A DNA stretch of 64,000 bases. Origin: Escherichia coli (lineage in GTDB: Bacteria > Pseudomonadota > Gammaproteobacteria > Enterobacterales > Enterobacteriaceae). The position numbers were made by a program. Below, piece by piece: positions 12,001 through 15,000 of this stretch (its first letter is position 1; each line of letters begins with the position of its first letter). The stretch is taken from the NCBI RefSeq assembly GCF_044324875.1, contig NZ_CP172185.1; one strand, given 5' to 3'.

Positions 12001-15000
12001 TGAAGAATGATATTACTGGCTCCGGCGCTCTGGTGAAACAGGGGGCGGGTAATCTGATTATTAATCATGAGCTGACTTATACCGGTGATACCACGGTTGA
12101 GAATGGCGTTCTGATTGTCGGTGATGATTCAGTCACCCGTGCCGCTGGTGCGACGTTGTCAGGATCCAAAAACATTCATGTTCTTAATGGCGGCACACTG
12201 AGTGGGCTGGGGACCGTTTCGGGTCAGGTTAATAACCAGGGAACACTGGCATCACTGAATGCTCTCTCAGGTTATGAAACGGCAGAGGCGAGCAATTTTA
12301 CGGTTGGTTCACTGACCAATACCGGCGTCATTCGTCTGGCCGGTGGTAAGACAGGAAATACCCTGACCGTAAATGGCGATTACACCGGTGGCGGTACGTT
12401 AATTATCAATACCGTGCTGGGGGATGATACTTCTGCCACTGACAAACTGATTGTCACGGGTAACACCTCCGGTGATACCGGCGTGGTGGTGAATAATGTC
12501 CGGGGCCAGGGGGCTCAGACCGCTGACGGCATTGAGATTGTGCATGTCGGTGGGCATTCTGACGGTAACTTCAGACTGCAGAACCGTGCGGTGGCAGGGG
12601 CATGGGAATATTTCCTGCATAAAGGTAATGCGGGTGGTACTGACGGTAACTGGTATCTGCGTTCTGAATTGCCGCCAGAACCACAACCGCAGCCGCAGCC
12701 ACAACCGCAGCCACAGCCACACCCCACGCCGGATAAACCTGTACAGAAGGTCTATCGTCCGGAAGCGGGCTCTTATATTGCGAACATAGCGGCAGCCAAC
12801 ACGCTGTTCAACATCAGAATGCACGATCGTGAGGGGGAAACTTACTATACCGATGTGTTTACTGGTGAGAAGAAAGCAACAAGTATGTGGATGCGTCATA
12901 TCGGCGGTCATAATCGCTGGAAGGACAGCAGTTCACAGCTGAATACGCAAAGTAACCGTTATGTTGTGCAACTGGGTGGCAGCATTGCGCAATGGACTGA
13001 CGGTCAGGACCGTCTGCAACTGGGGATTATGGCCGGTTATGGAAATGAGAAGAGTTCCACGACATCCTCGCTTTCGGGATATAAATCTAAAGGTGCGATC
13101 AATGGATACAGCACCGGTTTATACGGAACGTGGCAGCAGAATGACGGTAATGACAACGGGGCTTATGTCGATACCTGGATCCAGTACGGATGGTTTAATA
13201 ATACCGTTAATGGTGAAAAACTGGCTGCGGAGTCCTGGAAATCCCGTGGATTTACCGGTTCAGTGGAAGCGGGTTATACCTTTAAAGCCGGCGAATTTAT
13301 CGGTAGCCAGGGTAGCCACTATGACTGGTATATTCAGCCGCAGTCCCAGATCACGTGGATGAATGTAAGAGCCAGTGAGCATACGGAGAAGAATGGCACG
13401 AAAGTTAAGCTCAGCGGAGACGGTAATATCCAGAGTCGTCTGGGCGTCAGAACTTACCTGAAAGGTAAGAGTGCGTCTGATGATAATAAGGCGCATCAGT
13501 TTGAGCCATTTGTGGAAGTTAACTGGATCCATAATACACGGAGCTGGGGTGTCAAAATGGATAATACGGCACTCAGTCAGGACGGAGCTACAAATATTGC
13601 TGAAGTCAAAACGGGTGTTCAGGGTAAATTGTCAGATAACCTGAGTGTCTGGGGCAATGTTGGTGTTCAGGCTGGCGATAAAGGGTACAGTGATGCCCAG
13701 GCAATGCTGGGTATTAAATATATATTCTAATCACACAGTGGCAGGAGGGGACCTCCTGCCACCTCAGGGTTGTCATAATGAGTTCTGTAATGAAATTTTC
13801 TGTTGTTAATGCAGTAGTGCTGCTGTTGCTGATTGTACTTACTGGTGTTTTTTATATGAAAAAGTCAAAAGAAATTGCAGTTGTTAATATCGATGCTATT
13901 TATAATCAGTCTACCGCCGGAGACATGGCCAAAAAGCATCTGAATGAGGTTAAGAGTATTCTTGAAAAAGGATATGAGGATGCGCAAAAAACATTCGCAG
14001 ATAACGCGAATAAAGAGGCGCTGCTTCTTGATGCCAGACAAAAACTGGAACGACAATATGTTATTGAGGAAAATAGCGCAAAAATGGTGTTATCCCGTGC
14101 GATAGATAATGCCATAGGCACATGGAGAAAAGACAATCCTAAAAATATTGCCGTATTGTCTTCAGGTGTTGTGCTTGCGCATAACGAGTCAGCTGATATC
14201 ACCAAAGAAGTCATGACTCTGGTTGAAAAAGAAAATCTGGTTTTTAATAAATTACCCAAAGTGGAAGTGCACAATAAGAATGAAGAGAAACCAGAACAAA
14301 GTAAGTAATCACTAGATTCTGACGATTTCCAGAAGGGAGATTCAGCAGGCCAGCATCTGTAATCATTCAGATTTGCTGGCTTGCTGCTAAATATGGTTGC
14401 TAAGAAAAATAGCAGGCCAGTAATTTATTCAGATTACTGAATATAATAATTTTTCAGGAACGGTTATGCTGAAGGTAGTATGTTTAATCGACACAATTAT
14501 TTGCTGAGTCTAATATGAGGTGACATTTTTATGATCACTGACCAGCAAGACTGACCCGTATTGATTAGCCTGATTATTGGCAACTTATTGGGGTAGTCAT
14601 TTTGACATCGAATGGGGGAGGTTTCCAGTTAAGTTCACGAATGCATGATGATTTGCGTTCACATATCGAAGTACTGGTTGACTATACTAAGGATTTTAAG
14701 ATAACTCACTGATTGTAAGTGGGTTATTGCGAGGGGGATGATAAATGGTGTCCCTGCAGAAATCATCTTAATTATTATTATGTTGATTTATATGTAGTTT
14801 ATTTTTGATTTTTTGTTTTTGTACCCGTTTTGTGCCCGTTTTATTCGATTCCCAATTTAAACTTCGATTCTAGAAAGGTGAGTAGGGGAGGTTATCATTT
14901 CATGTATCATTATTGTAGACACAGAATAATTACTCGCCTATCCTCACTGTAGACACACAATAGATACAGGAGTTAACCCACATGCGCACACAGGTTGTAT

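Follow-up and report, generated by a model that had tools for sequence, protein, structure and literature searches.

The upaE locus and the Skp-fold protein

The DNA analysed here is a stretch of 64,000 nucleotides (nt) from Escherichia coli (RefSeq assembly GCF_044324875.1, contig NZ_CP172185.1), called the window below, and our subject is a small gene with a predicted Skp/OmpH fold that directly follows upaE, the gene of a giant autotransporter adhesin. The window corresponds to the E. coli ipuB-ipuA-ipuR-upaE island; the locus is chromosomal, and positions 13400-14700 match strains Ecol_316, 042 and others at 99.9% identity. The order along the window is dsdC, ipuB, ipuA, the ipuS switch, ipuR, upaE and then the Skp-like gene, after which tRNA-Arg and then yfdC come in reference strains. 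The upaE gene (5817-13730, plus strand; stop codon TAA at 13728-13730) encodes a type Va autotransporter adhesin of the AIDA-I/MisL type with 2637 amino acids (aa), named 'phase-variable autotransporter adhesin UpaE' in RefSeq. Its C-terminal 599 aa match the autotransporter barrel model TIGR01414 (E 1.6e-120) and MisL (E 1.3e-143), and it is the proposed client of the protein encoded next to it.

The Skp-like gene (13778-14308, plus strand, ATG start; RefSeq WP_000100045.1) encodes 176 aa. A preliminary description of this DNA, made from the sequence alone, had reported such an open reading frame (ORF) right after upaE, and it is indeed found there, with its ATG 48 bp past the upaE stop and thus a spacer of 47 nt. 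A Shine-Dalgarno-like AGGG read from the sequence (13766-13769, plus strand) stands 8 nt before the ATG. Automatic annotation calls the protein 'OmpH family outer membrane protein' in RefSeq and 'Chaperone protein Skp' in UniProt; the assignment of the Skp fold is sound but not new.

The preliminary description regarded the protein as a Skp paralogue sharing clear motifs with Skp. Pairwise comparison bears out the motifs only in part, since the best BLASTP segment against E. coli Skp covers 13 N-terminal residues with 5 identities (EIAVVNIDAIYNQ against KIAIVNMGSLFQQ, E = 0.07), and it is by profile and fold that the relationship becomes apparent. The Pfam family OmpH (PF03938) was matched weakly by the single sequence (17.8 bits, i-E 0.0041), a scan of the protein against NCBIfam gave noise and no matching model, and a PDB sequence search with a shallow alignment (A1) returned no relevant match, so that a broader alignment was required. 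When 1.84 billion representative proteins were searched with a profile, 219 relatives came up at E <= 1e-3, mostly of 160-200 aa, and a 62-member family alignment (A2) was used for the HHalign, PDB and Pfam comparisons. Pfam OmpH is matched by 41 of these 62 relatives at E <= 1e-3 and by 59 at E <= 0.1, and the A2 profile found the OmpH-like chaperones 4KQT, 9NHX and 9YJU/9YJT in PDB at E 1.8e-4 to 4.2e-4. The HHalign comparison of A2 with E. coli Skp (probability 92.9%, E 3.6e-7) pairs residues 28-149 with Skp residues 19-160, an alignment spanning the whole mature Skp from first residue to last.

Structure prediction gave the same result. The AlphaFold2 (AF2) model of the 176-aa protein has a predicted local distance difference test (pLDDT) score of 93.1 and consists of a helix (residues 3-27), a strand (32-36), two helices forming a long hairpin (46-72 and 79-119), a strand (123-128) and a helix (142-150). 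The modelled fold has the small beta core and the long antiparallel alpha-hairpin 'tentacle' of the Skp/OmpH superfamily. Ranks 1-10 of the Foldseek search against PDB are all Skp (1SG2, 1U2M), SkpA of the type 9 secretion system (8GL8) or CC_1914 (4KQT), with probabilities of 0.99-1.00, and the next matches have E > 2; the alignments to Skp chains show 16-20% identity, and the top structural matches in AFDB50 are exclusively Skp/OmpH proteins. Judged by sequence profile and predicted structure, the protein is a genuine Skp/OmpH-fold paralogue, and chaperone action may be expected from this fold.

Other properties set it apart from Skp. The N-terminus reads MSSVMK-FSVVNAVVLLLLIVLTGVFY-MKKSK, with a hydrophobic stretch of 20 residues and no A-x-A site; by sequence inspection and alignment, the cleavable Sec signal peptide characteristic of the Skp family appears to be lacking. 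The N-terminal hydrophobic helix of the AF2 model (residues 3-27; 13784-13858, plus strand) aligns with the lipobox of distant relatives, the L-x-G-C position being held here by LTGV with Cys replaced by Val. Of 161 relatives, 74 carry a lipobox, and its Cys is very often followed by Asp at position +2 (Cys-Asp), the enterobacterial signal by which lipoproteins are retained in the inner membrane. Other relatives have ordinary signal peptides or transmembrane-like anchors, and the lipobox Cys is substituted in the UpaE-linked clade (LTGV, FIGV, FISV, VGGW). The most economical reading of these alignments is that the helix would be an uncleaved signal-anchor standing in for the lipid anchor, so that the protein is probably tethered to the inner membrane and not a soluble periplasmic copy of Skp. 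Possibly, the helix is instead an atypical signal peptide cleaved after LTG.

Residues 28-176 have an isoelectric point (pI) of 7.05 (24 K+R, 24 D+E) compared with 9.52 for mature Skp, and the protein lacks the strongly basic character of Skp, whose pI is about 9.5-10. The arms are shorter than those of Skp, because the Skp-aligned region is shorter by about 20 residues. A C-terminal extension (residues 150-176; 14225-14305, plus strand) adds about 27 residues beyond the end of Skp, where the HHalign alignment stops at residue 149, and holds an F-x-x-L-P-x-V-x-V motif (F156, L159, P160, V162) followed by a charged tail; F156 and P160 are almost invariant across the 62 relatives. When three copies joined by 30-residue Gly/Ser linkers were modelled by AF2 with an 18-row alignment, a compact model was obtained (predicted TM-score 0.67, domain pLDDT 85-95) with an extra beta-strand that the monomer model does not have. 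This model is compatible with a trimer but is no proof of one. Of the earlier assignment, the fold relationship thus stands and the implied soluble Skp copy probably does not. The protein belongs to the Skp superfamily without being a copy of Skp, and appears to be a tethered, neutral and short-armed paralogue.

Autotransporter linkage and the junction between the genes

The co-occurrence analysis across genomes that had been suggested in the preliminary description came out in favour of linkage. Among 5426 complete E. coli genomes, the Skp-like gene is present in 252, including CFT073, Nissle 1917 and ABU 83972, and the upaE barrel segment is likewise present in 252; each of the two occurs at 258 places, 257 chromosomal and one on a plasmid. 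A contig scan with profile A4 found no relative among species-representative genomes, and profile A5 gave seven loci. An autotransporter gene is adjacent in 13 of 17 resolvable loci, the window included, on the same strand in 12 cases and divergent in one.

The same-strand loci, in which the Skp-like gene comes right after that of a large type Va autotransporter, comprise Salmonella diarizonae (L005; 2632-aa autotransporter, spacer 47 nt), an E. coli IncY phage-plasmid (L009; frameshifted UpaE-like autotransporter), two Yersinia ruckeri plasmids (L007 and L010, the partner at L010 being a remnant of an S6-peptidase autotransporter), Citrobacter sp. (L018/19; 2363 aa, spacer 47 nt), Citrobacter enshiensis (L025; 2831 aa, with two OmpH-like genes in tandem behind it), Enterobacter hormaechei (L026-28; 2345 aa, spacer 47 nt), Cedecea (L020; autotransporter barrel end at the contig edge), and three metagenomic loci: L003 (over 1880 aa, spacer 57 nt), L013 (2244 aa, spacer 48 nt) and L014/15 (BigA-like, spacer 50 nt). 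The divergent case is Buttiauxella agrestis (L016), where the Skp-like gene points away from a giant autotransporter. The partners are 1700-2800 aa long, several have ESPR and AC_1 domains, and their C-termini are bona fide MisL-like autotransporter barrels (TIGR01414 E 1e-111 to 1e-124). The relatives at the linked loci are only 25-45% identical, the lowest protein identity being about 25% and the lowest barrel identity about 29%. Nevertheless, of the 11 same-strand junctions that were scored, nine have a spacer of 47-59 nt, the exceptions being L007 (24 nt) and L025 (235 nt). The linkage of the Skp-like gene to autotransporters is not a local accident, and it spans genera and plasmids.

Some of these loci have features of their own. 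In the IncY plasmid pAPEC201602, which is P1-like, the UpaE-like autotransporter is split into 917 and 1720 aa and accompanied by the Skp-like gene (800-10543); since PapI/PapB-type regulators replace the ipu recombinase switch, the module has been re-wired to another phase-variation system. The tandem OmpH-like genes of C. enshiensis (10001-11082) encode 192 and 148 aa, and the 235-nt spacer begins with a hairpin. In a Desulfovibrio-like, non-enterobacterial context (L011, 7284-10501), an OmpH-like gene is divergent from that of a 766-aa RTX (HemolysinCabind) protein.

The pairwise divergences of the Skp-like protein and the autotransporter C-terminus are correlated (r = 0.77), and because they track each other, the two genes can be regarded as a single module that is inherited together. 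Of the two, the Skp-like gene changes more rapidly, with 64% identity between E. coli and Salmonella against 90% for the autotransporter C-terminus; the synonymous divergence (dS) in this comparison is 1.5 and 0.41, respectively. The ratio of nonsynonymous to synonymous divergence (dN/dS) of the Skp-like gene against its orthologues is 0.14-0.38, which indicates purifying selection, and that of the upaE C-terminus is tighter at 0.12. The Skp-like gene is intact in 250 of the 252 E. coli genomes. Within E. coli, 179 of the 252 Skp-like copies are 95-99% identical (compared over 13778-14308), while 247 of the 252 upaE barrels are at least 99% identical (12830-13730). The contrast in divergence hints at recombination or separate histories of the two halves of the module. 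In strain 042 (L001, 5476-12331), upaE has lost its N-terminus to an IS1 insertion that also truncated oxc, and the Skp-like gene is intact. For CFT073, dN/dS of the upaE C-terminus was discarded as unreliable, since the gene is frameshifted according to RefSeq, yet its protein has been detected experimentally (PMC6083910).

The spacer between upaE and the Skp-like gene holds a GC-rich stem-loop (13738-13762, plus strand) with a perfect 11-bp stem, a 3-nt loop and no U-tract (GTGGCAGGAGG-GGA-CCTCCTGCCAC), which agrees with the tight stem-loop lacking a T-tract noted in the preliminary description. Its core, GGCAGGAGG-GGA-CCTCCTGCC at 13740-13760, occurs as a single copy in the window, where none is expected by chance. 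The 53-nt spacer segment folds at -24.1 kcal/mol (z = -3.5), and none of 200 shuffled sequences was as stable. A scan for terminators did not call this hairpin, and no T-run follows its stem. A REP (repetitive extragenic palindromic)-like repeat was ruled out, since the sequence is unique in the window and has no Rfam match there.

Stem-loops of this kind were found in 10 of the 11 same-strand junctions between autotransporter and Skp-like genes (z -2.5 to -5), beginning about 8-12 nt past the autotransporter stop and ending 15-26 nt ahead of the start codon, with a Shine-Dalgarno-like GGAG, AGGA or AGGG placed likewise after the hairpin in other loci. Written as stem, loop and stem, they include GTGTGGTAGGG-GAAA-CCCTACCACAC (L003), ACCTTCCC-GTTTTCA-GGGAAGGT (L013), TCGGGGCGGT-AAATACC-ACCGCCCCGA (L014), GGCCCCC-CGAAAA-GGGGGCT (L018), CTGACCCTCC-GTAA-GGAGGGTCAG (L026) and GGAAGTCAGTGT-CTGAAAA-ACACTGACTTCC (L025, 12-bp stem). 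A sequence-conserved RNA motif was ruled out, as structure and position recur among the junctions and the sequences differ. Of the 11 junctions, L010 is the only one with a T-tract after the hairpin, and L007 has lost the hairpin.

A promoter scan of the upaE 3' end and the spacer gave no site above chance (5 found, 4.7 expected). Co-transcription of the Skp-like gene with upaE, as proposed in the preliminary description, is plausible in view of the short spacer, the missing T-tract and the missing convincing promoter. The hairpin may serve as a leaky terminator, an attenuator or a stabiliser of the mRNA 3' end that tunes the ratio of the two products, and a plain terminator combined with an internal promoter fits the hairpin data equally well. 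Another strong hairpin without a T-tract (14343-14386, plus strand) is located 35 nt past the stop of the Skp-like gene, and for the 115-nt region containing it the folding energy is -42.5 kcal/mol (z = -4.4). The transcription unit probably ends at this hairpin.

Possible role and alternative explanations

Type V secretion has long been portrayed as nearly self-sufficient. To our knowledge, the only co-encoded helpers are SadB and TpgA, both of which serve trimeric autotransporters. The conserved gene order and the co-divergence speak strongly for a functional partnership of the Skp-like protein with giant type Va autotransporters, and comparative genomics gives good support to a putative role as their dedicated helper. 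We propose, with a probability of roughly 0.5, that the gene encodes a divergent Skp/OmpH chaperone, probably tethered to the inner membrane, which makes up, together with a giant type Va autotransporter, a two-gene module inherited as a unit and would raise the efficiency of its secretion while being dispensable for it.

The proposed mechanism has five steps, the first of which has been shown elsewhere: when ipuS is ON, transcription starts inside ipuS and crosses ipuR and upaE. Partial read-through of the hairpin lacking a U-tract would then allow the Skp-like gene to be translated from its own Shine-Dalgarno sequence, and the hairpin may fix the ratio of the two products or stabilise the 8-kb upaE message. 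After Sec export, the N-terminal helix would keep the protein on the inner membrane, as the Cys-Asp lipid anchor would in its relatives, and the protein may assemble into a trimer with three helical arms. This trimer would hold the unfolded, ESPR-delayed UpaE (passenger and/or beta-domain) as it leaves Sec, so that aggregation would be averted until BAM/TAM takes over. The Skp-like protein would thus boost efficiency and not be strictly required.

In the published study of this system (PMC6083910), ipuR-upaE is a two-gene operon driven from the invertible ipuS; the downstream gene is unmentioned, and expression was measured for ipuR and upaE only. The reverse primer for pUpaE is the complement of window positions 13710-13730, and the clone therefore stops at the upaE stop codon. 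We found no description of a Skp-like or OmpH gene as an autotransporter partner in the open-access literature, an absence that is no proof but accords with the preliminary description, in which the arrangement was not recognised as a described one.

Several points weigh against the proposed chaperone module. Plasmid pUpaE (pSU2718) gives surface-located, biofilm-promoting UpaE that binds extracellular matrix in K-12 strain MS427 (PMC6083910), and because this clone works without the Skp-like gene, the gene is not essential for display, at least under over-expression. Four of the 17 relatives (L011, L017, L021 and L024) have no neighbouring autotransporter, and the canonical T-tract terminator at L010 means that the hairpins might simply end autotransporter transcription. 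Skp's electrostatic client binding may not apply to a protein with a pI of 7.05 instead of 9.5. A single Lys stands before the hydrophobic helix and the KKSK cluster after it, an unusual arrangement for an anchor with its N-terminus inside, and the possible trimer rests on a linker-joined AF2 model. The dedicated chaperone suggested in the preliminary description is accordingly supported as regards the recurrent autotransporter linkage and the Skp fold, and a strict requirement for it is contradicted by the published display of UpaE.

Two alternatives have to be weighed against this proposal. One of them, which we consider unlikely, is that the gene is an independent extra Skp paralogue: the hairpin would be the upaE terminator, a promoter would lie in the upaE 3' end, and the product would be a general chaperone of outer membrane proteins hitch-hiking on the island. 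A stable hairpin right after the autotransporter stop is terminator-like, with a full T-tract at L010, but most of the hairpins lack a U-tract. The weak promoter-like site at 13458-13487 is at chance level. The display of UpaE without the Skp-like gene and the four relatives standing alone would suit an independent paralogue, but not the spacing of 47-59 nt, which is kept across loci whose proteins are so distant from one another. Hitch-hiking also leaves unexplained why the gene recurs beside different autotransporters, including the S6-peptidase type, in several genera and on plasmids.

The other alternative, about as improbable, is that the protein is an autotransporter partner and not a holdase, being a tethered factor for retention, timing or quality control, or a damper of the envelope stress caused by the 271-kDa client. 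This is suggested by the neutral pI, the arms shorter by about 20 residues, the conserved F-x-x-L-P-x-V motif absent from Skp, the apparent membrane tether and the dispensability for display in K-12, but the entire Skp fold including the client-binding arms has been kept, and NCBIfam and Pfam scans gave no proteolysis or signalling domain. That the gene is a decaying, functionless ORF derived from the skp downstream of bamA is very improbable and largely refuted, since the higher variation of the E. coli copies compared with the upaE barrel and the weak Pfam score are outweighed by intactness in 250 of 252 genomes, dN/dS of 0.14-0.38, the conserved motifs of 219 representative relatives and a confident fold prediction.

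Comparison with known systems shows what the protein resembles. It shares with Skp (HlpA/OmpH; PF03938; 1SG2/1U2M) the order of beta-strand, long alpha-hairpin arm and beta-strands, and an N-terminal I-A-[IV]-V-[ND] and a C-terminal D-I-T motif are common to both. In the bamA-skp-lpxD cluster, skp comes after bamA, the gene of an outer-membrane beta-barrel protein, and the Skp-like gene also follows such a gene, upaE. Unlike skp, which is a core gene, the Skp-like gene belongs to the accessory genome (present in 252 of 5426 E. coli genomes) and is linked to autotransporters; its product also differs in having a hydrophobic N-terminus without an AXA signal peptide, in its lipoprotein relatives, and in pI, arm length and C-terminal tail. 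Another resemblance is to SkpA of the extended translocon of type 9 secretion in Bacteroidota (8GL8), a top structural match whose Skp fold has been recruited as a dedicated part of one secretion pathway, as would be the case here; SkpA differs in secretion system and phylum and in being built into a stable translocon complex of the outer membrane.

As regards position and function, the Skp-like protein is best described, by analogy, as acting like SadB (PMC3953254; PMC8151025). Each is the product of a small gene that shares a unit with the gene of a type V adhesin of Enterobacterales with an ESPR. Like SadB, which is a trimeric inner-membrane lipoprotein, the Skp-like protein would have an inner-membrane tether and face the periplasm, probably form a trimer and aid display without being absolutely needed. 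SadB differs in its unrelated fold (it is not among the 44 PDB matches), in its type Vc client as opposed to type Va here, and in gene order, sadB being upstream of sadA and the Skp-like gene downstream of the autotransporter. A second parallel is TpgA of Acinetobacter sp. Tol 5, whose gene is co-transcribed with that of AtaA. TpgA is a periplasmic helper encoded together with, and downstream of, a giant type V adhesin, and without it surface display falls (PMC12523085; PMC8151025), but it is monomeric, has BamE-like and OmpA-type peptidoglycan-binding domains, works at the outer membrane and lacks the Skp fold. SadB and TpgA are absent from the 44 PDB fold matches and from the Pfam matches, and these resemblances are functional and positional only. 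In reviews of the known helpers specific to type V secretion (PMC8151025), co-transcription with the client gene is given for SadB and TpgA, whose clients are trimeric autotransporters, whereas VirK and OsmY serve classical autotransporters and are encoded elsewhere. VirK and OsmY are periplasmic and chaperone-like with type Va clients, including the AIDA-I/Ag43 class, as proposed here, and differ in not being encoded beside their clients, in having other folds and in being soluble. A 2026 preprint surveying trimeric autotransporter neighbourhoods found no further helper and judged one for these autotransporters unlikely (10.64898/2026.01.22.700529). SinI, encoded beside the inverse autotransporter SinH, was considered as a Skp-like protein and rejected, because it resembles the Ig-like domains of SinH (PMC4943183). 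The gene rmbA, the neighbour of misL in Salmonella SPI-3, was considered as a candidate member of the family and dropped, no Salmonella Typhimurium protein having turned up among the matches to the Skp-like protein.

A bolder form of the proposal, which we hold more tentatively, is that tethered Skp paralogues are the first dedicated co-encoded periplasmic chaperones of type Va autotransporters, capturing their clients at the Sec exit in a SadB-like manner. A module of three parts would then have spread over chromosomes and plasmids of Enterobacterales: a giant autotransporter with an ESPR, an intercistronic hairpin lacking a U-tract, and a Skp-like trimer on a membrane tether. If this is true, a conserved Skp-like partner adds a missing component for giant classical autotransporters and could help to explain how passengers of 250 kDa cross the periplasm, which would be relevant to autodisplay biotechnology with very large passengers. 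It would also correct the two-gene view of ipuR-upaE in uropathogenic E. coli, Nissle 1917 and ABU 83972. Suitable strains already exist, namely CFT073 with ipuS locked ON or locked OFF and MS427(pUpaE).

Flanking regions of the island

The control region upstream of upaE (4225-5792, plus strand) consists of ipuA (4225-4854), the ipuS invertible promoter region (about 4855-5171), which reaches into the 3' end of ipuA, and ipuR (5172-5792). In this window, ipuA is complete (209 aa), and the stretch from ipuA to ipuR runs collinear with that of the CFT073 reference; the switch is therefore OFF in this assembly according to the published definition (PMC6083910).

Downstream, a mobile element of about 15 kb (14700-30154) parts the Skp-like gene from the tRNA gene (30083-30154, minus strand), while in Ecol_316, 042 and CFT073 tRNA-Arg is merely 438 bp downstream of the Skp-like gene. 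The element, located at argW, resembles a P4-type satellite or a remnant of a prophage, and carries on the minus strand a P2-family capsid-like ORF (15618-17030), IS21 istA/istB (18345-20763), a tyrosine integrase gene (22053-23093) and an 896-aa ORF without a family match (23060-25753). Inside it, Rfam detects a C4 antisense RNA (73 bits) adjoining the Hfq-binding small RNA isrK (50.6 bits) at 26951-27145 on the minus strand.

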